A stretch of DNA of 64,000 bases, taken from an uncultured virus (IMG/VR IMGVR_UViG_3300032038_000058) (Duplodnaviria > Heunggongvirae > Uroviricota > Caudoviricetes). Below the pieces are notes generated by a model. That model had not been told where the DNA came from, searched no databases, and saw only the letters and a list, made by a program, of their open reading frames with translations. Positions 4,833 to 58,275 of the stretch are shown here, one piece after another. The position numbers and the translations under genes were made by a program. Positions within the stretch are counted from its first letter, which is position 1, and each line of letters begins with the position of its first letter. The stretch is from IMG/VR virus record IMGVR_UViG_3300032038_000058; one strand, given 5' to 3'.

Positions 4833-4914
4833 AGCTATGGATTTTGAAATTTTAGTTAGATAAAGGAGGTTGAAAAATACCTTCTTTTCTTTTCAATTCC
4901 TTAATTATGAAAAA

Positions 4915-11550: not shown

Positions 11551-12729
11551 ATGTTAAGTATTTTAGACAGTGATCTTTATTTATTTAGTGTTAGTAATAG
11601 TTTTTATCAACTATATCCATTAGCAGAAGGTACACTAACATTTAATGATCGAAACAAAGAAATTTATGATCAAGAATTTATTGATCAACTTAAACAAGAA
11701 TTTGCTAAATTTAGCCAATTAAAGCTAACAGATGAAGAATTTAATTGGTGTGTGAAAAATATTCCCTACATTCCACAAACATACTGGGAATGGTTGAAAG
11801 GGTTTAGATATGAATTGGAAAAAATCAAAATTAGTCTGGATCAAGAGGGGCATCTTCATATTGAAGTAACGGACAAAGTATATAAATCGGGGTTCTATGA
11901 AATTCCGATATTAGCAACGGTGTCCGAGCTTAGAAATAAGAGACTTGGGTACGTTATGAATATCCAAGACATGTTAGATCGCTTAGACAAAAAGATTAAT
12001 TTTGCTAATGAACACCACTTAAAATTTTCAGAATTCGGTACACGTCGGCGATATAGTGCCTATTCACATGAGGCTATTGTTAAAAGGTTAAAAGAACGTT
12101 GCCCTATATACTGTGCTGGAACATCTAATGTATATTTTGCAATGAAATATGGGATGACTCCTATAGGTACACTTAACCATTTGTGGATATCATTCCATGC
12201 AGCAGTATTTGGGAATAAACGCGCAAACTATCTCATGTTAGAAGATTGGATTTCTGTATATCAAGGTAGTCTGGGTACGGCATTGACTGATCTTTTCACT
12301 ACAAAGTCTTTCTTGAGGACTCTAACAAGACAACAGGCTTTGTTATTACAAGGTTATCGTATTGACTCTGGTGATAACTTTAAGATCGGAAATATGATTA
12401 TTGAAAGACTTAAGGAGTTCGGTATTGATCCTAAGACAAAACTTTTGGTATTTAGTAATGCACTTGATTTTCCAAAGTATAAAGAAATTCACGATTACTT
12501 CAATGGAAGAATTATGGTGAGTGCGGGAATAGGTACTAATCTTACTTGTGATCCTGGTATAGAAAATTATAAGCCAGCTAACATAGTAATGAAGCTTAGT
12601 AAAGTTAGGATGTCTGCCAAAGATCCTTGGGAAAAGTGTATTAAAATCAGCGATGACCTTGGAAAACATATTGGCGATCCTAAGGAAATTGAAATTGCTA
12701 AATATGAACTTCACTTAGACGATGAATAA
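11551..12729 (+). CDS. pncB: Nicotinate phosphoribosyltransferase
   Basis: SILDSDLY, FSEFGTRRRYS, GTSNV, PIGTLNH, ALTD, RIDSGD, GIGTNLT, NIVMKL, KISDD. Confidence 0.9.
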   Translation: MLSILDSDLYLFSVSNSFYQLYPLAEGTLTFNDRNKEIYDQEFIDQLKQEFAKFSQLKLTDEEFNWCVKNIPYIPQTYWEWLKGFRYELEKIKISLDQEGHLHIEVTDKVYKSGFYEIPILATVSELRNKRLGYVMNIQDMLDRLDKKINFANEHHLKFSEFGTRRRYSAYSHEAIVKRLKERCPIYCAGTSNVYFAMKYGMTPIGTLNHLWISFHAAVFGNKRANYLMLEDWISVYQGSLGTALTDLFTTKSFLRTLTRQQALLLQGYRIDSGDNFKIGNMIIERLKEFGIDPKTKLLVFSNALDFPKYKEIHDYFNGRIMVSAGIGTNLTCDPGIENYKPANIVMKLSKVRMSAKDPWEKCIKISDDLGKHIGDPKEIEIAKYELHLDDE

Positions 12730-13904
12730 TGGCACAAAGAGAGATATTAGATAGGTCAAAATCTTTCCTTGATATTTTTACAAGGGATATAGAAATTGAT
12801 TACACTCTCCCAAAGTTCAATGTCCTTAGGGAAAAAACAGAAGAAGATGCTAAGAAAAAAGTAGAGGAGTCTGGTAGTGTAGAAAGAATGGTCTCTTCTT
12901 ATATGGGCGCTGGATATGATACTCCCGCATCTATAAATAATATTCCTGTTTTCGAGGGAGATAAAAAGAGAAAGGCTTGGATAGATAATAATAAAGGAAA
13001 ATTGGTAGATGAAGAATTTTTTAAGAATCTAACTGCCGATGATTTAACTATTATCTTAGATGAGAATAGGGCTAAGGGAATTAAGGCGAAGTTTGAGTTA
13101 ACTATAAACAGCTTAGGCTTGTCAGGTGAAAATCTCCAACCTACAACAGACAGCGTTACTTCCGTAGAGCCAAGAATAGTAGAAGAGCCTTTACCTGGGT
13201 TTTGGAACAAGATTCGTAGAAAAACATCGAAAAGAATAGGTTTATTCTATAAAGGTACTGATGAAGAGGTTCCAGAAACAGCCATTCAAACAGTTGGGCA
13301 AAAACCAACCTACGAACTAGATGTAATGAAGTTTTTTGACTTAGTGAAGTTAGAATCAACTAAGGAGATAGAGGATTATTATAACAGAATAGGTTCTTTC
13401 CTAGTGGCGATTAAGAAGGCCAAGCAGATGGGACAAACATCTCTAGTAGATAAGTTCCTGGGGAGAATCTTTATTGTAAAGTATGAATCAATCTTAAGAA
13501 CAAAAGGATTTCATCACAAGATATCAGAACCTCAGCTAGTATCTTTTGTAAAGAAAACAGAAAAGGGTGTATCTTTAACCTATGTCAAGAATTTCTCTCA
13601 CCCTATCCCAGATGATGTATTAGAGAAGAAGTTACAGGCGGATGAATTACATGTCTTTGATAATTATGTAGTTCTTCACTATGATCCAGAAGGGAAAGTA
13701 TATTCTCAGACACAAGAAGAGAAGGAAAAAGAACGTGTTAAGAAATCAGATCCAATCCTCTTCGGTATTATAGCCGAAAGTAGAGAACTGTATTATATTA
13801 CAGATTGGGTAGATGAATATTGTGACCTAACTTTAGATAAATTTCTTGAAGTTAGTGGATTAGATAAACAATCATTAGAAATTGGAGAAAAAATTAAAAT
13901 ATGA
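12729..13904 (+). CDS. Hypothetical protein between pncB and pncA
   Basis: 391 aa, coupled to both neighbours; C-terminal DPILFG...YYITDWVDEYCDLT. Confidence 0.7.
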   Translation: MAQREILDRSKSFLDIFTRDIEIDYTLPKFNVLREKTEEDAKKKVEESGSVERMVSSYMGAGYDTPASINNIPVFEGDKKRKAWIDNNKGKLVDEEFFKNLTADDLTIILDENRAKGIKAKFELTINSLGLSGENLQPTTDSVTSVEPRIVEEPLPGFWNKIRRKTSKRIGLFYKGTDEEVPETAIQTVGQKPTYELDVMKFFDLVKLESTKEIEDYYNRIGSFLVAIKKAKQMGQTSLVDKFLGRIFIVKYESILRTKGFHHKISEPQLVSFVKKTEKGVSLTYVKNFSHPIPDDVLEKKLQADELHVFDNYVVLHYDPEGKVYSQTQEEKEKERVKKSDPILFGIIAESRELYYITDWVDEYCDLTLDKFLEVSGLDKQSLEIGEKIKI

Positions 13905-14659
13905 GCAAAAATTTATTATTAGTAATTGATATGCAGAAGGATTTTTGTGATCCCTCTGGTAGTCTATATGTCCAAGGAGGTGAAGAGGCAGCTGAGAAAT
14001 TGGCAAACTTTATATCGCATAGGACAGAAAGATTTGACCACATCATACTAACTCAAGACTGTCATTTTCCTACACATATTGGGATGCATAGCTCCTGGAC
14101 AGATGAGAATGGAAATGACCTAGTACCATTCACGTCGGTGACTTCAGGTGGAATTGAACGAGGAATGTTTAACCCCAAGTATGTAACCCGAGAATATGCA
14201 ATTGAATATGTAAAAGCAATTGGGGGTGTTCATACTGTCTGGCCACTTCATTGTTTGAATGGATGTGATGGGATTCAGTTTCCAGAGGTTATAAAAACTG
14301 CCTTAATAGAGTATTGTGCAAGAACGGGCAAGCCTTATGAAGTTTTATCCAAGGGGCAGAAGAATGACGTGGAGATGTATAGTGTTTTATCCTACTTTGA
14401 TATTAATTTAGGAAAGAAGTGGATTAATTTTACATTAGTCGAAACTCTTAGCAGCTATGATAAAATATACATAGCAGGGTTAGCTAAGGATTTCTGTGTA
14501 TACTCTACAGTTAAGGACCTACTTGAGCATGAAGCTGGTTTGTTTAAAGACAGACTAGTATTTCTTAATAGCTGTATGGCATCTATTGATCCAGGAAATG
14601 TTGTGATTAAAAATTTCTATAATGAAGCTGTAGAAAAATACGGTGCGATAAATATGTAA
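13901..14659 (+). CDS. pncA: Nicotinamidase (isochorismatase family)
   Basis: VIDMQKDF, TQDCH, WPLHC, KG, AGLAKDFCV catalytic motifs. Confidence 0.88.
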   Translation: MSKNLLLVIDMQKDFCDPSGSLYVQGGEEAAEKLANFISHRTERFDHIILTQDCHFPTHIGMHSSWTDENGNDLVPFTSVTSGGIERGMFNPKYVTREYAIEYVKAIGGVHTVWPLHCLNGCDGIQFPEVIKTALIEYCARTGKPYEVLSKGQKNDVEMYSVLSYFDINLGKKWINFTLVETLSSYDKIYIAGLAKDFCVYSTVKDLLEHEAGLFKDRLVFLNSCMASIDPGNVVIKNFYNEAVEKYGAINM

Positions 14660-19146: not shown

Positions 19147-19667
19147 AGTGAATTCATTATGTTTGTGTAATTATTCATAACCCAATTGATAGCAGCAAAG
19201 GCATGTTTACATAATAAAGTTACACCTTTGTTACCTTTAGGGGCATCAGATAAAGCTTGACCTAGGGATATTTTAATTCTTTCATTTTTAAATAAAGAAT
19301 CTCTCTTGTCTAGAATATAAGCTGACCTAAACTTGAAATCTGCACAGTCACAGTATACTCTTATTTTATTCTCACTCCAATTATTTAATGAAAAATCTGG
19401 CTCTAGCTGAATAAATACATAATGAGGATTCCCCGTATCAGATTTAACTGCTAACTTAAGTGTAATATAATAAATCTTTACAGTATCCATATTAGTAAAG
19501 AATTTTTTTACTTTTGCAGCTATTCCTTCCTCCTTAAGAGAGAAGAATGTATCAACTAAGCTAACAGAACAGTTACCTGCACGTGCTTGTCGATTTCCAT
19601 CAATCTGCATTAATTCACCTAAAGTATATCTATTACCAAATAAATTACTTAATAAACTTCCTATCAT
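19143..19667 (-). CDS. SWIM-type zinc-finger protein
   Basis: YCDCADF ... LCKH. Confidence 0.6.
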   Translation of the reverse strand: MIGSLLSNLFGNRYTLGELMQIDGNRQARAGNCSVSLVDTFFSLKEEGIAAKVKKFFTNMDTVKIYYITLKLAVKSDTGNPHYVFIQLEPDFSLNNWSENKIRVYCDCADFKFRSAYILDKRDSLFKNERIKISLGQALSDAPKGNKGVTLLCKHAFAAINWVMNNYTNIMNSL

Positions 19668-19669
19668 AT

Positions 19670-19900
19670 TTATTTTATAGAATTTATATCTACAACCGGT
19701 TTAATATTTCCAGTAAGCGTTATTATACTATTACTTGATTTTATATAAAGTCCTGAAAATACAGGCTCCTTATCTTGACCATTACCACTATAAACAGGTT
19801 CTATCTCTGTCCTAGGTATGTATCTATTATCTTTAAATAATCTTTGGGTAGACTCATCATAAGAATAAACCTCACCCTTCTTAGTAACTATCTCTATCAT
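19670..19900 (-). CDS. Small hypothetical protein
   Basis: Coupled ORF. Confidence 0.55.
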   Translation of the reverse strand: MIEIVTKKGEVYSYDESTQRLFKDNRYIPRTEIEPVYSGNGQDKEPVFSGLYIKSSNSIITLTGNIKPVVDINSIK

Positions 19901-20964
19901 CTTTCACAATATAAACTTGGGTCAAATCTACTAATAAACTCTATATAATATCTATCTGAAATTTTTGTAATTCCATGTTTATCACAGAATTTATGAAACT
20001 CTCCTAATCCACTAAGTTTTCCAGCTGAAGGAAGTATGTCAGTAATTTGTCTTTTTGCTTCCTCTAGTCTAGGATACTTAGAGATATCAAATGTCTCCAT
20101 CTGTTTTTTGAATAGATCTATATCATTTACATCAGAATAATCACCATTCATGATATGCTTAATAGTCTCAACTGCATTTACTCTCTCTTTTGCAGTTCGT
20201 CTCATCCCGTTGTGTCCCTCTATTCCTAAAGAATCTATTAACGATTTATATTGATATAATGAAATTCCCATACTCTTAATTTCATCCGGCATCTCATTAT
20301 ACATCTTCTCGTAAGTAATTAATTCAGGCTGAGATTTACCTACAGGCATCTTAAACTGTAACATCTTTGGTGAAGTACAGTAAGAAATATCTGAATCCTT
20401 AGTAACCATTACACTGGGCTTTGAATTTGGATCTGGATCATATAACATCATTGAAGCTATATACATTAAGTTGTCTGCCTCATATCCAGGTACATATATC
20501 GATGGTACTCCAAATTTTCCCATTTCATATGTTAATGCAAATTTCGCCTTCTGCTTAGTCTCATTGTAGTATAACTTTACTTCAGCTTCTTGCAATACTT
20601 CTGGGGTTATGCTAGGATCCGCCTTCAATGCTTCATATTTTTCTCTTGTCATGTAAGTACTAAGAGGGTCTGCTTTTCCTTTTGCATCTTCAATATCACC
20701 GCGGCTATCTTTATAAGCACCCCCCAGTAGATGAGTTGTATAATATCCATTCCACGCAGGGTCCCACTTATCAACTACAAAAACATACTTATCTGCAGTT
20801 ATTCCATAGTCCCTGGCAAATTTATTCAGAGACCATATCGTCATTTGAATTATTTCACCAGCCGTATATTCTCCCGGCTTTTTATCCTTACTGACAACCC
20901 AAGAATTACGATAAAGTAACATTGAGCTATCAATCAATGCGTATTTATATTTATTATTTGTCAT
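19897..20964 (-). CDS. 5'-3' exonuclease / flap endonuclease (T4 RNase H-like)
   Basis: YALIDSS, YKDSR, GYEADN, TKDSD acidic motifs. Confidence 0.75.
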   Translation of the reverse strand: MTNNKYKYALIDSSMLLYRNSWVVSKDKKPGEYTAGEIIQMTIWSLNKFARDYGITADKYVFVVDKWDPAWNGYYTTHLLGGAYKDSRGDIEDAKGKADPLSTYMTREKYEALKADPSITPEVLQEAEVKLYYNETKQKAKFALTYEMGKFGVPSIYVPGYEADNLMYIASMMLYDPDPNSKPSVMVTKDSDISYCTSPKMLQFKMPVGKSQPELITYEKMYNEMPDEIKSMGISLYQYKSLIDSLGIEGHNGMRRTAKERVNAVETIKHIMNGDYSDVNDIDLFKKQMETFDISKYPRLEEAKRQITDILPSAGKLSGLGEFHKFCDKHGITKISDRYYIEFISRFDPSLYCER

Positions 20965-21031
20965 ATAATTTATTTTAATAATAAAAGGTAAGAGGGTTAC
21001 GAAAATCCCCTCCTACCCAAAGTTCAGTTAA

Positions 21032-22357
21032 TTAAAATGGCAAATCACCGTTATTTCCCCCGAAACCTCCTGCAAATGCTGGCCTCTGGAAAGGTGCACT
21101 ACCCCCAAATGTATTATTAGGGGTATCATTTACTGGCGTACCTGAAATCGGATTTAAGTGCGCGGCAGCGGGGTTCTGGAAAGGATTAGTATTCTTTGCT
21201 ACTACTTCATCCGGATTCGCTGCAACATTACTGTTACCGTATCCACCAAGCATACTCTTTTCATTCTCAACAGCCTTAGCCGCCATTTCAGCTAAGATCG
21301 GATCATTTGTCTGCTGACCTCTTGTATCAGTAGGGACTTGCTGAGAAAGAATGATATCGTTAGTAGCCTTAATTGCCTCAGCTACACTAGTTCCATTCTG
21401 CTTAGCTATACGAATCTTAGCAAGCTGGTCTGTCATATATTCAATAGCTTCCGTAATCAAAGACTTATTGAACAAACGACGCTGATCTGCAGGTGTATCC
21501 TCATCCTTATTTGCCTGCCAACCTAGGAATGTCTCTACCGGATTCTGCATCAAATCCATATCATCTTCTGGAATAGTTACTCCATTAAGATATGATTCTG
21601 CACCAAGTTGATGACTAACTGAAATATTAAATCCAGGACCATCTGCCTTGTTAATAGAGAACATCATAAATCCCTTACGATTTGCAGTCTCACGGTTATA
21701 GATATCATAAATCCAGTCAGAATTTCCAAGACCTGAAGTAATATTAGTGTCCTGAATTGCCTCAGCTACGATATCAATAAAACCTTTCGCTGTTACTACA
21801 AAGAGTGCACAGAAGTTCTGACGAGCAGGTGTTCTCATATCTCCACCAGCCCAAAGATTTAGAGCCATTGCATGAAATAATGTATAATTCTTCCGACGAA
21901 TTAACTTACCAATAGTAGGATCCATCGCATTATTTCTAGCATCTAATTCCTTATATAACTCTTCCCAAACTGTATATGCTTGACGCAATAAAGCCTCGTC
22001 TGCAGCTGTCAAAGATGATACTTCTCTGCCACTCGAAGGATCTTTAATCGTATAAGCACTCTCAGGAAGAATTCGAATCCATGCATTATATACTGTCTCT
22101 GTTCCATCACTACCGAGGTTCTTTCTAGGAATACTGATCTCTCTCGTATTTGGAAGTGCTACAAATGGATAACCACTGATAGTACTGCTAATAGGAAGCA
22201 ACTGATATTTACCAAAAGCTCCAGGATACGAACAGAAAATCTTCTCAATTGTTCTCTTCTTCTCAAAAACTTTCTTCTTTGAATTTGTAGGTGACATGCT
22301 CTGTAATTTCTCCAAAAATGCATCTACTCCATTTCCGTTGTTAACTGAATTGTTCAT
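21032..22357 (-). CDS. Probable single-stranded DNA-binding / replication protein
   Basis: First gene of the recombination operon; low-complexity tail ending GDLPF, like SSB C-termini. Confidence 0.45.
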   Translation of the reverse strand: MNNSVNNGNGVDAFLEKLQSMSPTNSKKKVFEKKRTIEKIFCSYPGAFGKYQLLPISSTISGYPFVALPNTREISIPRKNLGSDGTETVYNAWIRILPESAYTIKDPSSGREVSSLTAADEALLRQAYTVWEELYKELDARNNAMDPTIGKLIRRKNYTLFHAMALNLWAGGDMRTPARQNFCALFVVTAKGFIDIVAEAIQDTNITSGLGNSDWIYDIYNRETANRKGFMMFSINKADGPGFNISVSHQLGAESYLNGVTIPEDDMDLMQNPVETFLGWQANKDEDTPADQRRLFNKSLITEAIEYMTDQLAKIRIAKQNGTSVAEAIKATNDIILSQQVPTDTRGQQTNDPILAEMAAKAVENEKSMLGGYGNSNVAANPDEVVAKNTNPFQNPAAAHLNPISGTPVNDTPNNTFGGSAPFQRPAFAGGFGGNNGDLPF

Positions 22358-22723
22358 AAAATTTCTTAATTTAATTTGTTTTTAATAAAATAATTACTTT
22401 TCTTTTATATATTATTATTCTCTTGGGACTACATATTATCGTAATCCCATTGTGTCATTTATAAGATTTTAAAGTGTTTGTAGCGGATTTTCTTTTACTA
22501 CATTAATAAAGTTTTACGGGGATATTAACGGAATTTTTATCATTTCAGGCGCGGAACTATCATGGCCGAGCGGAATATACGGCTCCCTAATTTCGCCCAG
22601 AGAAACACTTGGGAGCTTCCACCATATAATGAGTAAGTAATTTTTTCCAGATAAATATAATTAAGAAGGCCTGCCCTATTTCTCCTTAACAGTCGAAACA
22701 GCCCACCACACCAGGCCTTACTT

Positions 22724-22759
22724 CTTCACTAACGCCTAACGGCTTTTATTGAAGTGAAG
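22724..22759 (+). repeat. 36-nt hairpin element, copy 1 (identical to the reverse complement of 56985-57020)
   Basis: CTTCACTAACGCCTAACGGCTTTTATTGAAGTGAAG. Confidence 0.95.
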
Positions 22760-22794
22760 GATATGATATTAATTTGACAATAGGAAAATTAAAG

Positions 22795-22866
22795 AAGAGG
22801 CTTGGATGGTTGGGGGAGCGGAATGGCGAAGAGAAACGGAGACATGGAGCGGAGGCAAAGCCTCTT
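22795..22866 (+). other. G-rich stem-loop element, copy 1
   Basis: AAGAGGCTT / AAGCCTCTT stem enclosing GGATGGTTGGGG ... AGCGGAGGCA, which is shared with 57025-57069. Confidence 0.75.
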
Positions 22867-23040
22867 TGAAACTAGTAAAGGAGGTGTAACTTTTTTAAGG
22901 CTACAAATCTTCTTTGTGGATATCCAAAAATATCTCAATAAAAGTAACATTTTGCACTTAGAATAACTTTAAATCCTGATATATGAGGGAGGACTCCTGT
23001 GTCCTCGCAAAAAAGTAACAAATTTAAAATAATATTTATT

Positions 23041-25062
23041 ATGAGAAAAAAGACTATTAACGTACCTTTTGGGATTAGGTACATTAGCGATTGGAAAGAT
23101 TTTAATTTCCAAAATTTCCCAGATCAATGTATAATTAATAAACAATTGCCTGGTTGTGGCTTTACTGAATTTTGCATTAGGAACTCGGATAATATTATTC
23201 TCTGTTCCCCTAGAAAAATGTTGCTCCAGAATAAAACCGATCAACACTTAGGGGAGGTATTTTTAGTAAAGAATGAACTAGAGACTGAACTAGGAGTTGA
23301 TAAGGATATTTCAAAGGATCAGAAGAATTTTGTAGAATATATACAAGAGATTTCTATGACCCAGAAAAATGAAGTTTTTAATAAGATTACTAATGAGTTT
23401 GTATTTTATTATCATAACTGTCAAGAGAATTCGAAGCCAGTTAAGATTCTGGTAACATACGACTCTTATAGAATTGTAAAAGATATTTTAACAAACTTAG
23501 GAATATTTGATCAATTCTATACTATAGTAGATGAGTTTCAAACAATCCTTCACGACTCCAGGTTTAAGTCTAGTACAGAATTAGAGTTCATGAATACTTT
23601 GGGAACGTCAAAGAAAGTATGTTTTGTCTCTGCTACACCAATGATTGACGAGTACCTTGATATGTTAGATGAGTTTAAAGATCTTCCTTACTTTAGTTTG
23701 GATTGGTCAGCAGAAGATCCCGGTCGAATTATTAAACCGAATCTTAAAGTGCTTTCAATGAAGTCTGTAGGTTCCAAAGCAGAAGAAATAATAAAAGAGT
23801 ATAGGTCTGGAGATTTTGAAAAGGCGATTAGAGTAGACGAATTAACTGGTAAGCCTTATGAAATTTTTTCTAAGGAAGCAGTATTTTACGTAAATTCTGT
23901 CAATCATATTATTTCAATTATTAAGAGGAATAGTTTAGAGCCAGATGAGATAAATATCTTATGTTCGAATACCACAGAAAATGTCAAAAGGATCAAAAAG
24001 AGACTTGGAAAAAGATTCATAATAGGAACAGTGCCTCTTAAGGGCGAAGAGAGGAAGATGTTTACTTTCTGTACAAGGACCGTATACTTAGGGGCCGATT
24101 TTTATAGTGATAATGCAAGATCATTCATTTTTTCTGATTCAAATTATGATTGTCTTTCTGTAGATATTAGCCAAGATTTACCTCAAATACTTGGGAGACA
24201 GAGATTAAACGAAAACCCATGGAAGAACTCGGCAACATTTTTCTATAGAACTACTTGCGACTATAGGAAAGTTGATAGAGCGGAGTTCGAAAAGTTTGTA
24301 GAAGAGAAGAAAAGGGCGACCTATAGTTTACTTACCTCTTATGAATCATCTCCGACAAAAGAAACTAAGTCCGACCTAGCCAAGAGTTTTAAATTTATAG
24401 CTGGTGCGAGAAATTATAGAGAGAATTATGTAGCAGTTAATACTCACGGCGGATCTTCTCTTCAGCCTGTATTTAACAACTTAGTATTAGTTAGTGATAT
24501 AAGGGCGTATGATATTCAGCAAGTAGATTATAAGGACAGGTTTAGTGTGTTTTGTTCAATTAATGCTCACGTAAATTCAGAGAATATTAATACAGAGATA
24601 GCTGAATTTTTCAAAGAATATGATAAACTGACAACATTTCATGATAAAATAAAAATGTTATGTACGTTTAATTATTCAAATCCGGATATAATTAATATAG
24701 TTCTCAATCAACTCGGGGAAGATAAGGTAAAATCCGCTTATATAGGTCTAGGTCCAGATAAACTCCGATCATTGAACTATAATATTAGCTATATTCAACG
24801 TGCATTAAGTGTTGTAACTTTTAGTGAAGAAAATCTTAAGGAAGCAATCTATGGTAATTTTAAAATAGGAGAAAAAATCTCTCTATCTTATATAAAGAAA
24901 GAGCTTTCTAAAATATATAATTCAATTGGATATAAAAAGAATCCAAAAGCTACAGACCTGCTGAATTATTTCGAAGTAAAAGAAAGTCTAATATTTCAGG
25001 ACTTAGGCGATGGAAGCAGAAAACGAGTAAAATCATATGAACTAATAAGTAAAAAAGAATAA
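23041..25062 (+). CDS. SF2 (DExx) helicase-like protein with degenerate Walker A, paralog 1
   Basis: PGCGFTE, CSPR, VTYDS, VDEFQ, VSATP, CTRTVYLGADF, QILGRQR. Start set at ATG 23041 by comparison with paralog 2. Confidence 0.75.
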   Translation: MRKKTINVPFGIRYISDWKDFNFQNFPDQCIINKQLPGCGFTEFCIRNSDNIILCSPRKMLLQNKTDQHLGEVFLVKNELETELGVDKDISKDQKNFVEYIQEISMTQKNEVFNKITNEFVFYYHNCQENSKPVKILVTYDSYRIVKDILTNLGIFDQFYTIVDEFQTILHDSRFKSSTELEFMNTLGTSKKVCFVSATPMIDEYLDMLDEFKDLPYFSLDWSAEDPGRIIKPNLKVLSMKSVGSKAEEIIKEYRSGDFEKAIRVDELTGKPYEIFSKEAVFYVNSVNHIISIIKRNSLEPDEINILCSNTTENVKRIKKRLGKRFIIGTVPLKGEERKMFTFCTRTVYLGADFYSDNARSFIFSDSNYDCLSVDISQDLPQILGRQRLNENPWKNSATFFYRTTCDYRKVDRAEFEKFVEEKKRATYSLLTSYESSPTKETKSDLAKSFKFIAGARNYRENYVAVNTHGGSSLQPVFNNLVLVSDIRAYDIQQVDYKDRFSVFCSINAHVNSENINTEIAEFFKEYDKLTTFHDKIKMLCTFNYSNPDIINIVLNQLGEDKVKSAYIGLGPDKLRSLNYNISYIQRALSVVTFSEENLKEAIYGNFKIGEKISLSYIKKELSKIYNSIGYKKNPKATDLLNYFEVKESLIFQDLGDGSRKRVKSYELISKKE

Positions 25063-25156
25063 AAAAGAGATAGTATATAGGAAATTAATCTTATATACTT
25101 TTCTCTTTTCTTTTCATTCTATCCTCCTCGCAGATATAATAATATTCTTCCGGACA

Positions 25157-25567
25157 TTAATTTTCTTTCTTTACGTAGCTTGTCCATTTATTCAGGATTC
25201 CTTTATAGTTTTTATTATCGAATCTATTTATTGCTTGATCATAAAATAGACAGTAGAGTAGTAGTTCTTCGTCTTTGCTTTTCTCGTCTACTATCAGATC
25301 TATCTTAGTAAAGCCTTTATTTATAATATGAGCCTCTAGTATTGCAAATTTCTCTTCTTCGGTTTCCCCATATATAACTGAGGGGAGTTTTAATGTATTC
25401 CTAACTGCAGGGAAGAGATTAAGAAGCAATCCGGTATTAATTTTCTGTTTAAAGCATACGGGTTCTTCTATTAATTTTTGAACAAGTAAAATCCCTTCCT
25501 CCTCTAGATCTATACACACATCTATCTCATGCTTTCTAACGAATACCTCCAGGTGATCTTTTATCAT
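25157..25567 (-). CDS. Hypothetical protein
   Basis: ORF downstream of the MFS gene. Confidence 0.55.
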   Translation of the reverse strand: MIKDHLEVFVRKHEIDVCIDLEEEGILLVQKLIEEPVCFKQKINTGLLLNLFPAVRNTLKLPSVIYGETEEEKFAILEAHIINKGFTKIDLIVDEKSKDEELLLYCLFYDQAINRFDNKNYKGILNKWTSYVKKEN

Positions 25568-26738
25568 CTTTGAATAAACTTATTGCAATTCCCAGGGCTA
25601 CAATATAAATTACCCCTACTACTAAGAATAGTGTATCATATCCAAGTCCTCGATTATTTATAATAAAGGAGCTTAATTGATTTCCACTCAGTCCTGCCCA
25701 TGCCCAAGCACTTAAAGCAAATCCATGAATAGTAGATATATTATTCATGCCAAATTTTTCTTTTAGCAGTATAGGTAATGTACTAAATCCACCACCATAC
25801 CCAGCATTAATAATACATAGGGTTATTATCAGGAGTATTGGTGATAAAGACACTGATCCTAGACAGAATATTGTACTAGTAAAGAATATAATAAGATATA
25901 TTATAATTTTTTTACTAACTAGGTCTGAGCATGTACTATATCCAAATCTTCCTACTGTATTAAATAATGCTGTTGTAGCTGATAACAGGGCAATTCCGGA
26001 GATACCAACAGAGAGTGCTATAGATTTTTCAAAGGATATCAAAGCAAGGCCACATGTAATATTTAGGTAGAATAATAGCCAAATCCTAATATACCTAGAA
26101 TCTAGTATTACTTTAAATGCATCTTTAAACTTAAACTCATCTTTAGGTTCTGTCCATCCCTCTGGTTTTTTAATAAATAATGAAGCGAGAAGCATAGGTA
26201 AGAATGATATACCTGCCATTGCTGTTAGTACTTCACTTGCTAATAAGTTAATACTAAATAGGTATTCTATTATAGGGGAGAATAATACTTTACTTAATCC
26301 AAATCCACTTATAGCAATACCTGTTGCTAGTCCGGGGTGTTTACTGAACCAGAGCATTAATGTTTTTACTGGACTTAAATATCCTATACCTAATCCAATT
26401 CCCATTAAGGCTCCATAGGATAAGAATAACCCTAGAATAGAACCTCCTTTAATTGCGAGGGCGGATAGTAACAGACCTGAGATAAAACAGATCATAGAGA
26501 GTACACTTGCATTTTTCACATTTTTCTCAACAAATCTACCACCAAATGCAGCAGACATACCTAGTGAAAAGATAGCAAGCGAAAAAGCAAATTCAATCGG
26601 GGATGTAGAAACTAATCCCATCTCTTGAGCAATATCGCCTTTTAATAGCGACCAACAATATACACTTCCAATGCATGAGTGTATCAATAGTGCAGGTAAA
26701 GCCCCACACAACCATTTATTTTCTTTTATCTTTATCAT
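25536..26738 (-). CDS. MFS transporter, OFA (oxalate:formate antiporter-like) family
   Basis: About 12 TM segments; GSVYCWS, GIGLGIGYLSP, WFSKHPGLATGIAISGFG, YGGGFS. Start placed at ATG 26738 after the promoter motif. Confidence 0.85.
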   Translation of the reverse strand: MIKIKENKWLCGALPALLIHSCIGSVYCWSLLKGDIAQEMGLVSTSPIEFAFSLAIFSLGMSAAFGGRFVEKNVKNASVLSMICFISGLLLSALAIKGGSILGLFLSYGALMGIGLGIGYLSPVKTLMLWFSKHPGLATGIAISGFGLSKVLFSPIIEYLFSINLLASEVLTAMAGISFLPMLLASLFIKKPEGWTEPKDEFKFKDAFKVILDSRYIRIWLLFYLNITCGLALISFEKSIALSVGISGIALLSATTALFNTVGRFGYSTCSDLVSKKIIIYLIIFFTSTIFCLGSVSLSPILLIITLCIINAGYGGGFSTLPILLKEKFGMNNISTIHGFALSAWAWAGLSGNQLSSFIINNRGLGYDTLFLVVGVIYIVALGIAISLFKDDKRSPGGIR

Positions 26739-26789
26739 AACACATATAAGGCAGTGATTGTTTTCTATAGGCAAAACCTTATATTTGAT

Positions 26790-27350
26790 ATGAAGCCTAA
26801 TGATAAAAATAGAGTAGTTTGCCCGGATTGTGGTAAAGCGAAAATGTTATTTAAGTCGAAAAAATCGGCTGAGAAATTTATTGAATATAATGGAAAAGAT
26901 ATAGATACTGGTGGAAAACCTCTTAGATCTTATTACTGTCCTGCATGTTGTGGTTATCATATTACAAAGAGGAGGTATAGAAAATCTTATAGCACAAGGA
27001 CAGATAACTTGATCAATGCTTATCATAGTAGCCTAGAATCAAAGAAAAAGATTGAAAAGCAGACTCCTCCTCCTCCACCCCCAACAACAGAACAACTTGC
27101 TCAGGGTGAGGTAGATAAAATCCCTTTAGAGATATTTATCCTAGGAAAAGGGTCTGTAAAGAAGTATATAACAGAAACCTTTAGAAAAGAGGGTGAGGAG
27201 ACTTTATTTATTACCACCATAAGAAAGTTGGCATATAAAAGATTAGAAAAAATTTGGGGATATAGAAAAATACCCTATGAGCAGTATCATAAAGAAATGG
27301 AAGAATTAAAAAGAAAAAATATGGAAGGTTTGAAAGAGCAGGGATTTTAG
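26790..27350 (+). CDS. Zinc-finger-like basic protein
   Basis: CPDC ... CPACCGYH and a poly-Pro linker. ATG lies 2 nt after the promoter motif at 26777-26787. Confidence 0.6.
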   Translation: MKPNDKNRVVCPDCGKAKMLFKSKKSAEKFIEYNGKDIDTGGKPLRSYYCPACCGYHITKRRYRKSYSTRTDNLINAYHSSLESKKKIEKQTPPPPPPTTEQLAQGEVDKIPLEIFILGKGSVKKYITETFRKEGEETLFITTIRKLAYKRLEKIWGYRKIPYEQYHKEMEELKRKNMEGLKEQGF

Positions 27351-27356
27351 GAGTAG

Positions 27357-27402
27357 AAAAGAAAAGTACTAGATATATTACAATCTAATACTTTCTTTTT
27401 TT
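27357..27402. terminator. Bidirectional terminator-like hairpin
   Basis: AAAGTACTAGAT / ATCTAATACTTT imperfect stem with A and T tails between convergent genes. Confidence 0.55.
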
Positions 27403-27403
27403 A

Positions 27404-30061
27404 TTAACCCAGTACTTCTACCTTAGGATTATTGTTTTCGTCAAGGCTAACATTAAATTTCGAGGCTTTTACATCTTGCAACATCATATTACTTACAGGT
27501 ATTATTACAGATGATTCAATACCTCTTGACAAATCTCTAGCTCCGTATATAGGATTACATTTACTAATGATATAATCCCTCAACTCGTTAGAGACTTTAA
27601 TGCTAACTTTATTTTTATTTAACTGTGTCCGAATCTTTAACAGTTCTTTATTAAAAATTTTGACTAATTCATCTTTTCCTAGGTTATTGAATACTATGAT
27701 TTTATCTAATCTGTTAATGAATTCTGGGCGAAAGTGTTTTTCTACACTCTTCATTACAATATTCTTATTTCTTCTTGCAATGTCCCCCGGATCCTTTATT
27801 CCAAATCCAATATTTTTATCTTCCTTTAATTCCCGGGTACCAATATTTCCCGTAAAGATTATTACACAGTTAGAGAAATCTACCTCAGTTCCATTGGCTA
27901 ATTTACACTTTGATGTTTCCAATACAGATAGCCAGATGTCATATAAGGCGGGATGCATTTTATCTATTTCATCAAGAAGTACTAAAGATCTTTTATGTCT
28001 TCTTACTTTCTCTAGGATACAATCTCCGTTCTCATATCCTACATATCCGGCGGGTGCACCAATTAGTTTAGACAATGAGTGTTCTTCCTTAAGTTCACCA
28101 CCATCAATTTTAATCAATGCATCTTCTGACCCAAAGAATATTCTAGCAAACTCTTGAGCAATAAGTGTTTTACCTACTCCACTAGGCCCTACTGCTAAAA
28201 GACTACATAGAGGTTTCTTTTGGTTATGCAATCCCAGAGAGTTCAATTGAAGCGACTGAACTAATGTATCAATAGCCTCTTGCTGACCAATTACTTTACT
28301 TTCAAGTTCTTTTTTCATCAAGGCTATTTTATCTCGATCTGATTGAATAATATTCTCAGCCGGAATCCCTGTCATTTTACTTACGGCATCTGATACAGCA
28401 TCTAGTGTAATAACTGGCCAGGTTTTTCTGTTCCTAGCATCTTTTTCAGTAGCTTTGATTTCAGCATCTATAAGTTTTTGAATAGCTTTCTCTTCTTTTC
28501 TCAACTCTTCTCCTCGCTCAAAATCCATATCTACCTGAACAGCTTTTATCTTCTCTTCAATTATATTTTTCAATTTATCTTCCAGGTCAGTAGTTTTTGG
28601 AGATTCAACAATTCTCTTTAAACTTACAATTGAAGAGCTTAGGTCTAGAACATCTATTGCTTTATCGGGGAAATTCTTATCGGTTATATATCTATCTGCC
28701 CATTCTACACAATGTTCAATAGTGTCTTTGTCTAATCGAACTCTATGATATTTTTCGTATGCTCCCGAAAGACCTTTAAGTATTTTAATAGTTTCTCCCT
28801 TACTAGGTTCTTTAACTTCTACTTGAGTAAATCTTCGGTTCAATGCAGCATCTTTTTCTATATACTTTCTATACTCGTCATTTGTTGTTGCACCAATACA
28901 CTGGAACTCACCACGAGCTAGATAGGGTTTCAAGATATTAGCACCGTCTCCACCACCAGTTCCTCCATTTCCAACAAGGGCATGAAGTTCATCGATATAT
29001 ACAATAATATCTTTTGAAGAACATACCTCCTTTATTATCTTCTGTAATCGTTCTTCATATTCTCCTCTATATTTTGTTCCCGCCACTAAGTCATTCAAGT
29101 TCAGCGCCCGAATTTCTTTATTCTTTAGTGCAGCAGGAACCTTGTTGTTTACTATTCTTTGTGCTAATAGTTCAACTACGCTACTTTTGCCAACACCTGC
29201 TTCTCCTACCAAGGCGACATTAGCTTTTTTTCTTTTACATAGAATTTCAATAATAGAGTCTACTAAAGCATCCCTTCCTATTACGGGATCATATTTTCCA
29301 TCTTTAGCATAATTATTCATATTGATCGAAAATTGATCTAAGTAGGGAGTATCGCTGTTGGGATCTAATTCCTGTCCAGATAGAGGGCTAGTATCTCCAT
29401 ATTTCTCAAACTCCTTTTCATCGTCTTCATTATTTGCCATAGAATTATTATCATTATTGGTTGATTCTTTATCTTTAGCCATTGATTTTGCTATTTCCAT
29501 AAGGGCTGACATTATATCTTTACCACCTTTAATTTTCTTCTCTCCCTCATATAGTTTACTTATACTATCAGATGTAATTCCCATGTCAATCAAGATATCA
29601 ATGACACTAGAATCATAATGCTCTATTAGTTTTTCTAATATCACGTCAGTATCTAAAATATCTTCTCTCTCTGGATATACATATTTAGTATGTTCAATCG
29701 AGCAGTTAATTACATACTCAAGCTCCGGATCAATACCTAGGTCAACTGTAAAGTATCTATCATCCTTGTCAACATGTAAAGAAGATGCATTCTCTTCTAA
29801 CCAACATATTATATCGGCATTCTCATCCTCGGCCGTTTCTATAATAAAGTCTCTATCTTCTTCCTCGATAGTAGACAATAGATAATTAGATAATGGCAGA
29901 TTACTTGGAGAAGAATTCCTCTTGTTTAAGTAATAATCTAAGAAAGTAAGTGAAAATATCTCAATTGGTATTACATTCATCTTTCTTTCTTTTGAGAACT
30001 TGTACGAAATCTTAAAAATCTCCTGTAAGTCTCTTGATAGTTTTAACTTATTATTTTTCAT
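27404..30061 (-). CDS. clpC: ClpC/ClpA-type AAA+ ATPase
   Basis: Two NBDs (GEAGVGKS / YIDELH and GPSGVGKT / LLDEIDK), GTKYRGEYEER pore loop, NIGFG ClpP-docking loop, FRPEFINRLD, YGAR. Confidence 0.88.
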   Translation of the reverse strand: MKNNKLKLSRDLQEIFKISYKFSKERKMNVIPIEIFSLTFLDYYLNKRNSSPSNLPLSNYLLSTIEEEDRDFIIETAEDENADIICWLEENASSLHVDKDDRYFTVDLGIDPELEYVINCSIEHTKYVYPEREDILDTDVILEKLIEHYDSSVIDILIDMGITSDSISKLYEGEKKIKGGKDIMSALMEIAKSMAKDKESTNNDNNSMANNEDDEKEFEKYGDTSPLSGQELDPNSDTPYLDQFSINMNNYAKDGKYDPVIGRDALVDSIIEILCKRKKANVALVGEAGVGKSSVVELLAQRIVNNKVPAALKNKEIRALNLNDLVAGTKYRGEYEERLQKIIKEVCSSKDIIVYIDELHALVGNGGTGGGDGANILKPYLARGEFQCIGATTNDEYRKYIEKDAALNRRFTQVEVKEPSKGETIKILKGLSGAYEKYHRVRLDKDTIEHCVEWADRYITDKNFPDKAIDVLDLSSSIVSLKRIVESPKTTDLEDKLKNIIEEKIKAVQVDMDFERGEELRKEEKAIQKLIDAEIKATEKDARNRKTWPVITLDAVSDAVSKMTGIPAENIIQSDRDKIALMKKELESKVIGQQEAIDTLVQSLQLNSLGLHNQKKPLCSLLAVGPSGVGKTLIAQEFARIFFGSEDALIKIDGGELKEEHSLSKLIGAPAGYVGYENGDCILEKVRRHKRSLVLLDEIDKMHPALYDIWLSVLETSKCKLANGTEVDFSNCVIIFTGNIGTRELKEDKNIGFGIKDPGDIARRNKNIVMKSVEKHFRPEFINRLDKIIVFNNLGKDELVKIFNKELLKIRTQLNKNKVSIKVSNELRDYIISKCNPIYGARDLSRGIESSVIIPVSNMMLQDVKASKFNVSLDENNNPKVEVLG

Positions 30062-31035: not shown

Positions 31036-31069
31036 AACATATATAAGGAAATAAAAAGAAAAGAGGGAT

Positions 31070-31951
31070 TTAGTTTCCCTCCATAGTTTTTATTAGGTTA
31101 TTATATTTCTCTTTTTCTAAAGGAGTCTCGGCTTGGTTAATTATTTCAGATACTTCGGATTTTATACAATGTTTTATAATGTCTTTAGTATCCTTATAAT
31201 CAAATTCAACCTCCGGCAATATTGATATGAGCTGTGGACATTTCTCTACAGTCAATTTCTTCATAGTATACCAACAACTTATTTTTCCATTTTCTCCCAT
31301 TCTTACCTGAAATATTATATCCGTTGAAACATCAGAGCTACTTGAATAAGGAAATTTTATATCCGCAATACCAACATTAGTATAATCATCCCAATCCAAA
31401 AGTGTATATTGAGATTTCCAAATTTTAAAAGATACATATAAATTATTAGTACATCTTTTATAAATTTTTCCTAATTCGAAATAATCTGCGAACAAAGAAT
31501 TAAGAGTTGTCTTTCCTCCAACTTCCATCTTTATATTATACAATCTTTCACTTATTTCAAAACGAATACTAAGTTTGTTATATCTGACTACTTGATTCTC
31601 ATAACAATCCTTTATCCATTTAAATATTAAATCAGGGTTACCAGTTATATCTATTAGTTTTTGTTTAATTTGATTAAAACTGTTAAAGTTCCCCTTATGG
31701 TATGAAAATGTAAATATCCTAACACCATCACAGTTATAGAAACACCATGAATTTGCCACCTTAGAAGTAATTTCCAGTATATAATCCCCCAATAGGTAAG
31801 TCAGGGAATGAGGCTTGCCAAACTCTAGGTCTTCTCCTTCTGTATATGTAAAGTTTAGGAAATATTTTTCTTTAAGCTTTTGCTTCAGCTCTAGCATTAA
31901 TTCTTTTTCATTCATACTTTTTCTCATTAAATAAGTAACTGGAGTATCCAC
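31070..31951 (-). CDS. Hypothetical protein
   Basis: Long ORF; start uncertain. Confidence 0.6.
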   Translation of the reverse strand: MDTPVTYLMRKSMNEKELMLELKQKLKEKYFLNFTYTEGEDLEFGKPHSLTYLLGDYILEITSKVANSWCFYNCDGVRIFTFSYHKGNFNSFNQIKQKLIDITGNPDLIFKWIKDCYENQVVRYNKLSIRFEISERLYNIKMEVGGKTTLNSLFADYFELGKIYKRCTNNLYVSFKIWKSQYTLLDWDDYTNVGIADIKFPYSSSSDVSTDIIFQVRMGENGKISCWYTMKKLTVEKCPQLISILPEVEFDYKDTKDIIKHCIKSEVSEIINQAETPLEKEKYNNLIKTMEGN

Positions 31952-37962: not shown

Positions 37963-38002
37963 ACACTAGTAAGGAATTTAAATGAAAAATAAAGAGGGAA
38001 AA

Positions 38003-38536
38003 TTAAATCCCTCTCTTCTTTTTAGTTTCTTTATCTAATATTTTCAGTAATGTAGGCAATCTGTAGTTACCATCCATTGAGCGTATTAGATCAGCTGCTA
38101 ATTGGTCTGAAATACCTTCTCCTTGAACAAATAAAGGATTAACTACTTCTTTATTTCGGTACACTTTTATACTAATATCATCACACTTACAATAAAGACT
38201 TTTCGCAACTCCTATTAATTTTATATGAGAGATGTTAAGTTTCTTTCTTAAGTGTAAGCCAAGACCATCATGAATACTTCCATCAGCATCTTTCAATCTC
38301 AAGAAACCATCTAAGATTATAAAGTCTATCTTACTTAAGTCTACCTTTTTTAATAAATCTAAGATACATGGAAGTTCTCGTTTGTAGAATTGTCCTGGTA
38401 TATATGGTCCGAAATTATTCTCAGAGATAACTGAAATTATACTACTGGGAACTTTATCTTGCCACGAATTGAATAGTACTCCGACCGTAAAAGCTTTCGT
38501 ATCTGATTCATAAAAAGTATCTATAGCAATAATCAC
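38003..38536 (-). CDS. Endonuclease V-like protein
   Basis: IAIDT, PYIPGQFYKRELP, IILDG, IGVAKS, YRLPTLLKILD. Confidence 0.8.
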   Translation of the reverse strand: MIIAIDTFYESDTKAFTVGVLFNSWQDKVPSSIISVISENNFGPYIPGQFYKRELPCILDLLKKVDLSKIDFIILDGFLRLKDADGSIHDGLGLHLRKKLNISHIKLIGVAKSLYCKCDDISIKVYRNKEVVNPLFVQGEGISDQLAADLIRSMDGNYRLPTLLKILDKETKKKRGI

Positions 38537-45466: not shown

Positions 45467-45486
45467 AAAATAAAAGAAGGTAGAAA

Positions 45487-50179: not shown

Positions 50180-50225
50180 AGCTAACAACAGCCCTACTTT
50201 TCTTTTCAAAACCTTAACTGTGTAT

Positions 50226-51517: not shown

Positions 51518-51520
51518 AAA

Positions 51521-54543: not shown

Positions 54544-54685
54544 TTCCTCTAATTTTTTTTCATAGTTAAGGTTTTGAAAAGAAAAGGTTAAAGAATAATA
54601 ATATAATCCAATAACCTCCCTTAATAATCAAATTAATAACTAATCACTAACCCATATCTTGCACTTCTATATACGTAAATCATAA

Positions 54686-56737: not shown

Positions 56738-56984
56738 AACATTTATTATTTTAATTATTTCTTTTTCATAAGTGAAGCCTCCTTAAAACAGTCAGCTTCA
56801 CTATCTCTCTCACATATCAGGCGTTGAGAGTTTCTGGAAGGAGTTTTTTTTGATTTACAGAGTAACATTATCTTTAGAGATGAAAAAAAAGACATACATT
56901 AAATAATACCCCAATTCCTCCAAATTTTTTCCACGCCACGTTCCAAAAATTTTCCGGAATAAAAAATAATAAAATTTGCCATAT

Positions 56985-57020
56985 CTTCACTTCAATAAAA
57001 GCCGTTAGGCGTTAGTGAAG
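56985..57020 (-). repeat. 36-nt hairpin element, copy 2
   Basis: Reverse complement is identical to 22724-22759. Confidence 0.95.
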
Positions 57021-57024
57021 TATT

Positions 57025-57069
57025 ACTCGGTCGGATGGTTGGGGAAGCGTAAGCGGAGGCAGACCGAGT
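57025..57069 (+). other. G-rich stem-loop element, copy 2
   Basis: ACTCGGTC / GACCGAGT stem enclosing GGATGGTTGGGG ... AGCGGAGGCA. Confidence 0.75.
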
Positions 57070-57198
57070 TTATTATTATTCTTTATCTTTATTCCCAGAG
57101 GGTCCCTGTTTCAGAGGCTCTCAATTGCAAAGGTTTTTTTAATGCAGAATCCGCTTGAAAAATCCCGCCGTCTAAAAACCCCTGAAAATCTTATATAT

Positions 57199-57361
57199 GG
57201 AGAGAATATAACGACACATAAATTACAGTCATACCCTTCCGGTCTTAGCCGACAAAAAAGTGGATATTGGTCGGGGTAATAGAGACAATCGCCGGGGTGA
57301 CTGATTTACTAGCCCATTGCGAGTTCGGGTTCACGTGTGCATCGATTCTCTCCCTTTTTTT
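57199..57361 (+). ncRNA. Candidate ~155-nt structured ncRNA (rod-like)
   Basis: Begins at the end of the promoter motif. GGAGAGAAT pairs with ATTCTCTCC, with nested stems inside and a T tract after it. Confidence 0.6.
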
Positions 57362-57622
57362 CCTTTATGGAATCCCAGATACCTCTTCGTGGTGTATAGG
57401 ACTAGTAGTACTAAAGTTATGAAGCTAAGATCTGGGCAAAGGCATTGAATTATTTTGATGCTGGAGTATGGTGACATAGAGATTTATTATTTAAATGTCA
57501 AAACGCCGAAACACATATAACTATTTAAATTAAGATAATGAATTTGATTTTGATTAAAGAAATTAGAGGAAATAATAATAATATATTAAAAATTCGATCA
57601 GGTATTAATAATTTTTAAAGCT

Positions 57623-58231: not shown

Positions 58232-58275
58232 AATAAAAATAGGTGGAAATTAAATCCACCTTTTCTTTTTTTTTT

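Follow-up and report, generated by a model that had tools for sequence, protein, structure and literature searches.

The 64,000-nucleotide (nt) stretch of viral DNA analyzed here (IMG/VR record IMGVR_UViG_3300032038_000058, Caudoviricetes; "the window" below means this whole stretch) encodes two diverged paralogs of a protein with a predicted superfamily 2 (SF2) helicase-like fold, and each of the two genes, A and B, lies behind a long non-coding spacer that contains an identical 36-nt hairpin. We found that spacer and helicase-shaped gene form one inherited module, of which the 36-mer is the most conserved piece, that the association of this gene with a structured spacer extends through its protein family, that several such modules are present in large related genomes, and that the hairpin stems of related modules vary while remaining complementary. 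The module may be a replication origin with its own adjacent initiator, a reading to which we assign a probability of about 0.4.

Two old paralogs behind one hairpin

The 36-mer (CTTCACTAACGCCTAACGGCTTTTATTGAAGTGAAG) is present in exactly two copies in the window, with no others at up to three mismatches and an expectation of 0.00 from 100 shuffles. An initial annotation of this DNA, made from the letters alone, had described an identical 36-nt element upstream of each paralog and in the same relative orientation, and this was borne out: the two copies are exact, share one orientation relative to the gene, and lie 281 nt (gene A) and 247 nt (gene B) before the start codon. The arms and inner stem that it had predicted (Table 1) were recovered by folding, as RNA or as DNA and on either strand (z of -3.2 to -4.5; -3.2 to -3.7 as RNA), and because all stem pairs are Watson-Crick, the hairpin may form on either strand with neither favored. 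Its 22-nt interior reads as a tandem of CTAACG(C/G) x2. Around the hairpin, 39 of 41 nt are identical between the two spacers, and the remaining flanks are nearly unalignable. The placement of the elements in the two longest non-coding gaps, at divergent strand switches, also held when open reading frames (ORFs) of at least 100 amino acids (aa) were mapped: no other gap in the window is as long as the spacers of A (683 nt) and B (885 nt), the next one measuring 520 nt.

The proteins themselves share 313 identities over 691 positions (45%). Identity is highest at the N-terminus with motif I (64%), lowest in the helical C1 region that precedes the winged helix (22%), and 44% in the winged helix. 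Both proteins have closer kin in other phages than in each other (up to 97% identity for A and up to 63% for B), indicating that the duplication is old. The proposal that each gene is a single-gene unit held for gene A, which has opposite-strand neighbors and a terminator-like hairpin behind it, but not for gene B, where same-strand ORFs begin 142 nt after its end; gene B may head an operon.

Sequence motifs reported initially, namely GCGFT (A) or GCGYT (B), DEFQ, SAT and QxxGRxR (read as QILGRQR), were found in both proteins and are invariant or nearly so across the family. In an alignment of 14 sequences, D164, E165, F166, Q167, S197, A198, T199, Q382, G385, R386 and R388 are invariant, and SF2 motifs II (DExx), III (SAT) and VI (QxxGRxxR) are thereby accounted for. 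Motif I is different: the catalytic Walker A lysine (GxGK[ST]) was absent from all 272 family proteins examined. In 246 of the 272, the motif reads G[CS]Gx[ST], in which x is F, Y, M, A, L, I, G or S and never K; the other 26 have no such motif in their first 130 residues, and several of these start mid-protein by alignment range.

A full-length AlphaFold model, built on the 14-sequence alignment (mean pLDDT 66), matched 397 PDB chains by Foldseek at E ≤0.001 (down to 4e-8), led by Brr2, RECQL5, BLM and RecQ. VIA comparisons with SF2 enzymes gave Z values of 11-13.3 and root-mean-square deviations (rmsd) of ~4, with 260-300 residues aligned over model residues 9-503 and no subfamily prominent. 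These comparisons of the predicted model confirmed the earlier assignment to SF2-like proteins; the fold is that of SF2 enzymes in general, with two tandem RecA-like domains. A separate model of the C-terminal 169 residues, built on a 40-sequence alignment (pLDDT 90), contains a helical region followed, in the last ~75 residues, by an H-S-H-H-S-S unit. This tail matched the RFX DNA-binding domain with Z 6.3 and rmsd 2.7 over 66 aligned residues, and RFX5, Nse1, DpnI, the MCM8 winged helix and the phage P4 origin-binding domain with Z 4.3-5.4. The modeled C-terminus thus looks winged-helix-like and is a candidate DNA-binding tail; we call it winged-helix-like and nothing stronger because the Z values are middling. 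Kinship of the tail with the P4 origin-binding domain in particular (Z 4.3) was considered and dropped, since dozens of unrelated winged helices match equally well.

Profile libraries added little to this assignment. Neither A nor B matched a Pfam family at E ≤0.01; 15 family members scanned singly against Pfam at E ≤0.1 gave no DEAD, Helicase_C, ResIII or similar family; NCBIfam, PHROGs and PADLOC returned noise or nothing for the paralogs; and a profile search against solved structures gave noise only (E 0.61 and 1.3). The same profile libraries placed no recombinase, transposase or nuclease domain in the proteins, and no third copy of the C-terminal tail was found in the window.

A large viral family with structured upstream spacers

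The family to which the paralogs belong comprises more than 4,708 clusters at 90% identity among 8,000 candidates scored, with 1,587 representatives at 50% identity, of which 400 are at E ≤1e-30. Its neighbors in the ESM Atlas are clusters of "hypothetical protein", largely viral, and one adjoining cluster carries PF00270 on 11% of its members. The family is almost entirely viral, unnamed, and without a profile model in Pfam, NCBIfam, PHROG or PADLOC. A pattern search for loci starting from a single protein gave 42 matches, none of them a relative. At the level of locus DNA, the closest relatives found encode proteins 59-63% identical to A or B.

Copy numbers are lower bounds, taken from the best 80 loci of each scan. 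Four IMG/VR contigs of 371-401 kb have at least five sites each; confirmed genes number 5, 5, 4 and 3, respectively, and the other sites are known from the element match alone. A metagenome contig of 390 kb carries at least five genes and one of 184 kb at least three. Three cultured phages of ~90 kb (D'Alembert, Phab24 and ET-ABTNL-9) have one copy each. The gene of Psychrobacter phage D'Alembert is annotated as a "DEAD-like helicase"; it has a 1.35-kb gap before it, bordering the terminal repeat, and an HNH endonuclease gene after it. That of Acinetobacter phage Phab24 follows a 0.93-kb gap at a divergent switch.

To describe the upstream DNA across the family, we used 60 non-redundant relatives (L206 and L207 were left out because they had too little upstream DNA). 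Counting ORFs of at least 90 aa, the nearest one upstream was at a median distance of ~600 nt; it was co-directional in 34 cases and divergent in 26, so that a long spacer, but not a divergent switch, is a family-wide trait. These spacers contained 59 perfect hairpins with stems of 7 bp or more, versus 18 in equal lengths of coding sequence. A k-mer search of 64 non-redundant spacers for a universal upstream motif found no family-wide consensus, the words TTCGCTC and TTTTCGC being present in 11 of 64 versus none of the controls.

A counterpart of the hairpin was seen in a human-gut clade whose proteins are 58-59% identical to A. Here, 72 of the best 80 loci have one GGAGCTTCC followed by a hairpin with the loop CGCTACCGC, in the orientation of the gene and 340-440 nt before its start codon; of the other eight, three are truncated at contig ends and five have a diverged version. 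In this clade, an unchanging loop is enclosed by any of three fully complementary stems, ACACCCCT/AGGGGTGT, ACACCTCT/AGAGGTGT and ATCCCCTC/GAGGGGAT, which were compared by eye and by folding because the MAFFT alignment displaced the third variant by one column. Every combination of stem type and flanking block is found, which argues that paralogous spacers exchange pieces. The tandem words in the loop are CGCTA(C/G) x2 in these relatives and CTAACG(C/G) x2 in the window. When IMG/VR was scanned for the clade element, a paralog started 350-440 nt downstream in 60 of the best 80 loci, and one locus was cut off by a contig end. The other 19 matches lie in unrelated contigs with no paralog downstream (18 have other spacing and one, L090, has the clade length with unrelated sequence) and are probably due to chance. 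Multi-copy contigs that are more remote have upstream blocks of their own, 31-95 nt long and common to their paralogs, several of which contain hairpins and CG-rich words, e.g. GCGTAGCG and CGCTTAACGG.

In the window, the 36-mer is thus found only before the paralogs, and in 72 of 80 loci of the human-gut clade a different hairpin takes its place. The exact 36-mer had no match in IMG/VR. Its 22-nt interior likewise had no match in metagenome contigs, and a 12-nt core (up to one mismatch) was absent from 159 loci (L201-L359).

In some relatives, the C-terminal tail is also found outside the helicase-like protein. At locus L001, the helicase-like gene is immediately followed by a 347-aa ORF (4998-6041) that matches T5orf172 weakly (E 0.0028; 18.6 bits, the cut-off being 20) and whose last 160 residues are 75% (120/160) identical to the tail of the helicase-like protein. 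At least five other loci (L042, L052, L054, L076 and L216) also have a second tail copy downstream of the gene. About one quarter of the listed relative loci gave a tblastn match ~1 kb longer than the gene, probably from a second tail copy or from insertions. A comparable protein is Odn (gp88) of phage ICP1, which, according to the excerpted text of PMC8263062, combines a T5orf172 nuclease with a domain that shares 42% identity with the RepA origin-binding domain of PLE, and which cuts the origin that RepA serves. The T5orf172-like ORFs of the relatives likewise carry a copy of the C-terminal domain of the initiator candidate, as far as the excerpted description of Odn allows the comparison (PMC8263062). 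The cases differ in that the arrangement was seen in relatives and not in the window, that the T5orf172 match is below the Pfam cut-off, that donor protein and nuclease-like ORF share one genome here, and that both cutting and its target are putative. Because the L001-type ORFs resemble Odn in build, this analogy suggests that the tail may be a portable DNA-targeting domain whose target matters.

Spacer features, transcripts and genomic setting

Coordinates of the module components are given in Table 1. Besides the hairpin, the two spacers share an upstream box and a piece of 20-30 nt, the X element, which lies 45 nt downstream of the 36-mer in spacer A and is inverted and on the opposite, upstream side of the 36-mer in spacer B. 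The inversion and displacement of the X element indicate that the spacers undergo rearrangement.

Table 1. Features of the two modules, with positions in the window.
Feature	Position	Strand	Remarks
Paralog A (P0001), 673 aa	23041..25062	+	Two-RecA SF2-like core (predicted), helical region, C-terminal winged-helix-like domain at ~595-670
Paralog B (P0002), 683 aa	54686..56737	-	45% identical to A
Non-coding spacer A, 683 nt, between divergent genes	22358..23040	.	GC-rich islands up to 58%
Non-coding spacer B, 885 nt, between divergent genes	56738..57622	.	From ORF map
36-nt hairpin, copy A	22724..22759	+	Exact match; outer stem CTTCACT/AGTGAAG, inner GCC-TAAC-GGC
36-nt hairpin, copy B, identical to copy A	56985..57020	-	Exact match and repeat scan
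X element, G-rich, copy A (GGATGGTTGGGGGAGCGGAA ... AGCGGAGGCA)	22804..22857	+	Enclosed by inverted repeat GAGGCTT/AAGCCTC
X element, copy B	57033..57061	-	Minus-strand match, E 0.005, and collinear 10-mer; enclosed by CTCGGTC/GACCGAG
Shared upstream box CATTTATAAGATTTTAAAGTGTTTGTAG, copy A	22456..22483	+	23/28 identical to B, E 5e-4
Shared upstream box, copy B	57172..57199	-	Match to box of copy A
Proximal region (CATTTTGC ... GGGAGGACTCCTGTGTCCTCG), kept in relatives	22948..23040	+	RNA contigs of two studies start at 22994

RNA evidence came from contigs of four metatranscriptome runs, belonging to four bovine-gut or bovine studies, which were placed on positions 19500-27500. The deepest covered gene was the divergent neighbor of A (21032-22357, minus strand), with a contig depth of 22-48 versus 2-8 for its neighbors, and its RNA contigs end at 22406-22441, 50-85 nt upstream of its start codon. 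Its 441-aa product has no Pfam or PHROG family and may be a major structural protein. In two studies, the RNA contigs of gene A share an exact start at 22994, where no loose end is seen. This position is 235 nt past the hairpin and 47 nt short of the start codon, and the shared start is a weak hint, from RNA contigs alone, that an RNA 5' end lies here. Contigs span both flanking genes and none covers 22442-22993; short RNAs may be lost, so this gap is not counted as evidence.

No sigma-70-type promoter or terminator scored above shuffles in either spacer; the hairpin has no T-run after it, and no terminator-like site was seen in either spacer. Rfam models run on both spacers with permissive settings gave sub-threshold matches only (best 18-20 bits versus gathering thresholds of 44-55). 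One of these, to the F. prausnitzii model of an HDV-like ribozyme, falls within spacer B at 57362-57437 (plus strand, as for the divergent neighbor; 18.4 bits versus a gathering threshold of 44, E 1) and is probably due to chance. Short upstream ORFs, read by eye, precede both paralogs: one of 11 codons before A (22983-23018, plus strand), within which the hinted RNA 5' end at 22994 falls, and one of four codons before B (56754-56768, minus strand), behind an AAGGAGG box. Upstream ORFs of 12 codons are found at the matching place before the helicase-like gene in relatives.

The window has 32% G+C and densely packed ORFs. Pfam matches include family-A DNA polymerase, NAPRTase, NAD synthase, ClpB-like, ClpP, SbcCD-like fusion, Thg1 and radical-SAM proteins, and numerous ORFs have no Pfam family. 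No tRNA genes were found in the window, nor any Rfam family at gathering thresholds. Near-identical DNA or RNA is present in bovine-gut and bovine metagenomes and metatranscriptomes of several studies. This gene content and the near-identical bovine sequences identify the window as a fragment of a large rumen or gut (jumbo) phage. Genes for NAD salvage and synthesis lie at 11551-14659 and 47981-49870 (NAPRTase, an isochorismatase-like ORF that is possibly a nicotinamidase, and a glutamine-dependent NAD synthase), a set that agrees with the title of PMC11662467, which concerns NAD+ systems of gastrointestinal jumbo phages.

Repeated elements of other kinds were also observed. A 165-nt unit is repeated seven times in tandem at 705-1994 (copies 66-100% identical to the reference) within ORF 722-2392, whose product would accordingly be built of 55-aa repeat units; Pfam gave short scattered matches to this ORF, with no single stretch passing alone. 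AT-flanked hairpins (AAAATAAAAGAAGGTAGAAATTAATCTACCTTTTCTTTT and variants) lie at gene ends on both strands (31045-31091, 37985-38028, 45467-45507, 51501-51541 and 58230-58270) and are likely bidirectional terminators. The motif CTTTTCTTTTCAA(A/T)(A/T)CCTTAA(C/T)T lies directly before start codons at 4884-4915 (plus strand), 50197-50222 (plus) and 54561-54586 (minus); the three copies are 91-96% complementary or identical, and a comparable word, CCTTTCAA..CCTTATG, precedes helicase-like genes in relatives. The motif looks like a phage promoter or leader signal.

Weighing the roles of the module

The initial annotation had proposed a gene with its own cis-element, acting as initiator and origin. 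The predicted SF2 fold, the winged-helix-like C-terminus and the recurrence of a multi-copy unit are in keeping with this proposal; the divergent-switch setting of the window (26 of 60 relatives) is not a rule of the family. Both in the window (683- and 885-nt spacers) and in the family (a median of ~600 nt, with hairpins in the ratio of 59 to 18), the gene adjoins non-coding DNA that contains hairpins or repeats, the arrangement sought in an origin with an adjacent initiator. The origin reading fits best because it accommodates the fold and tail, a structured spacer of 0.6 kb that is inherited with the gene, a fixed loop on changing stems, an identical hairpin before two old paralogs, and one copy in 90-kb phages with several in large contigs. 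It would require that the protein bind DNA, that the hairpin act as a site at the level of DNA, and that the module take part in replication. Sequences particular to each spacer would be bound by the divergent C-terminal part of the paralog next to it. The hairpin common to both spacers, either as an extruded cruciform or folded from a single strand exposed by unwinding, would be where the conserved helicase core or the shared replication machinery of the phage acts. Jumbo relatives, which carry several modules (about one per 60-95 kb), would resemble archaeal multi-origin chromosomes with an initiator paralog for each origin.

Several results weigh against the origin reading. Because the Walker A lysine is absent, ATP-driven unwinding by the protein is doubtful, and the winged-helix match is of middling strength (Z <8). 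The evidence from stems consists of three stem types in one closely related clade, and a close relative of the window's own hairpin was not found in the IMG/VR, metagenome-contig and locus searches described above. Since the tails differ (22-44% identity) and the 36-mer is identical, the 36-mer is probably not the specific site of each paralog, and since upstream blocks are mosaic among paralogs, its identity could be a gene-conversion patch. GC skew, suggested at the outset as a check for an origin, gave no signal separate from gene strand. It switches sign at both spacers, with the cumulative minimum of the window at spacer B; however, it flips only with gene strand, minus-strand genes are alike on both sides of A, and 33 relatives with a co-directional upstream neighbor keep the skew sign (+0.141 upstream versus +0.177 in the gene). 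No switch in strand composition independent of gene orientation was found in the window or in these 33 relatives, and because skew follows gene strand only, it is uninformative on replication. Phage genomes often lack a replication skew, so this result is compatible with an origin.

A rather unlikely alternative is that the spacer is a transcriptional control region, in which the hairpin, or the same sequence as duplex, serves as an operator or upstream activating site for a common phage or host factor or for a conserved part of the paralogs, leading to co- or autoregulation of the paralog genes and possibly of their divergent neighbors. An identical site before two genes of one genome would suit a shared regulator, as would the constant orientation of the module to the gene, the separate conservation of the proximal 90-130 nt between window copy A and relatives, and the position of both window copies between divergent genes, A's neighbor being the deepest covered in four RNA libraries. 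The hairpin, however, is far and at variable distance from the start codon (window, 247-281 nt; relatives, 340-440 nt) and ~235 nt from the hinted 5' end, and neither the several copies in large genomes (one in three phages of ~90 kb) nor the 600-nt structured spacer is explained by this model. Stems that change on both sides around a fixed loop point to a folded single strand and not to a duplex operator. Such stems, all three variants of which are complementary, would also be expected of an RNA element, either a hairpin in a long 5' leader of the helicase-like mRNA or one in a small independent spacer RNA. This is distinctly unlikely. The RNA fold is good (z -3.2 to -3.7), and standard libraries and contigs easily lose short RNAs, but no Rfam family reached threshold in the window or in either spacer, the hairpin is not followed by a T-run and neither spacer contains a terminator-like site, the stems contain only Watson-Crick pairs that favor neither strand, and the shared start of RNA contigs at 22994 in two studies lies past the hairpin, which is a weak hint in the same direction.

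The other possibility raised initially, a mobile unit spreading through the genome, was not supported, and we regard as very unlikely a self-propagating cassette of spacer and gene with the 36-mer as its end or recognition site. Several copies per genome, mosaic upstream blocks that recombine among copies, and homing-type nucleases associated with the genes in relatives would all be natural for a selfish unit, and phage genomes of the Jug group are described in the excerpted text of PMC12880540 as having hundreds of homing endonucleases. But A and B, at 45% identity, are the products of an old duplication with closer kin elsewhere (97% and 63%), no terminal inverted or direct repeats bracket the units (repeat scan, gene ends), the proteins contain no recombinase, transposase or nuclease domain in the libraries searched, and the element lies 250-440 nt inside the spacer and not at a junction. 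Least probable of all, and by our estimate highly improbable, is that the 36-nt identity has no function of its own and is a recent short gene-conversion tract between homologous spacers. Exchange is evidently frequent, as the mosaic combinations of stem type and flank in relatives and the inverted, displaced X element indicate; it would not account for a conserved-loop hairpin at the equivalent place in 72 of the best 80 relatives or for the enrichment of structured elements upstream of 60 non-redundant loci, and a tract that coincides with the hairpin (shared 22719-22759, hairpin 22724-22759) would be unexpected.

The origin reading can also be compared with known systems. Herpesvirus UL9 (OBP), with its origins oriS and oriL, combines an SF2 fold, a C-terminal DNA-binding part and a palindromic, hairpin-capable non-coding site, as described in the abstracts of PMC12543377 and PMC13483431. 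No sequence relation to UL9 was detectable (no Pfam family in 16 members of the phage family), and UL9 chains were not among the 50 best Foldseek or VIA matches listed, which is compatible with structural kinship; the phage family differs in lacking the Walker A lysine, in its bacterial host, and in being multi-copy with each copy beside its own site. Multi-origin chromosomes of Sulfolobus have an Orc1/Cdc6 or WhiP initiator gene beside each origin. They resemble the large phages in having several structured non-coding sites per genome, each adjoining its own diverged paralog that ends in a winged-helix or winged-helix-like part, but their initiators are AAA+ proteins and not SF2, and their origins were mapped experimentally, whereas the phage modules are candidate origins. 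Phage P4 alpha, a primase joined to a superfamily 3 (SF3) helicase with an intact P-loop, acts with ori and crr and is likewise a helicase-class protein with a C-terminal winged helix (1ka8 versus the tail, Z 4.3, rmsd 2.7 over 64 residues); it differs in its SF3 class and intact P-loop, and the Z value is low, with many winged helices scoring alike. In the early promoters of phage N4, the virion RNA polymerase reads DNA hairpins (stems of 5-7 bp, loops of 3 nt) that immediately precede the transcription start. The module would likewise use a short DNA hairpin with sequence-specific loop and stem as a phage cis-signal; in it, the hinted RNA start is ~235 nt from the hairpin and the hairpin interior is 22 nt.

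An initiator gene beside its origin is thus a known arrangement; the protein family carrying the module is undescribed and very large. No published description of such a module was found among titles and abstract openings, and the text of PMC12880540 on Jug phages does not mention helicase, paralog, hairpin, intergenic or GC skew, and uses "origin" only in unrelated senses. The human-gut contigs of 360-401 kb agree in size with the Jug phages as given in the abstract of that paper. A wider reading, tentative and somewhat doubtful as a whole, is that gut and rumen jumbo phages are multi-replicon, with evenly spread origins served by diverged, lysine-less SF2 "pseudo-helicase" initiators that bear a winged-helix tail and would be counterparts of UL9, with the shared hairpin as the entry site of the replisome, and with homing-type nucleases that have captured the tail and attack rival origins in some lineages.

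Altogether, our results indicate that abundant phages of the human gut (contigs of 360-400 kb) and the rumen carry a conserved, multi-copy non-coding module of which this protein family is a marker. Should the modules be origins, we know of no earlier case of a phage genome organized as several origin-initiator units, or of an SF2-type origin-binding initiator outside the herpesviruses, and the unusual P-loop would raise the question of how an initiator works without the canonical lysine. Even if the module is regulatory, a hairpin with fixed loop and changing stems would be a new class of cis-element for the annotation of such genomes.

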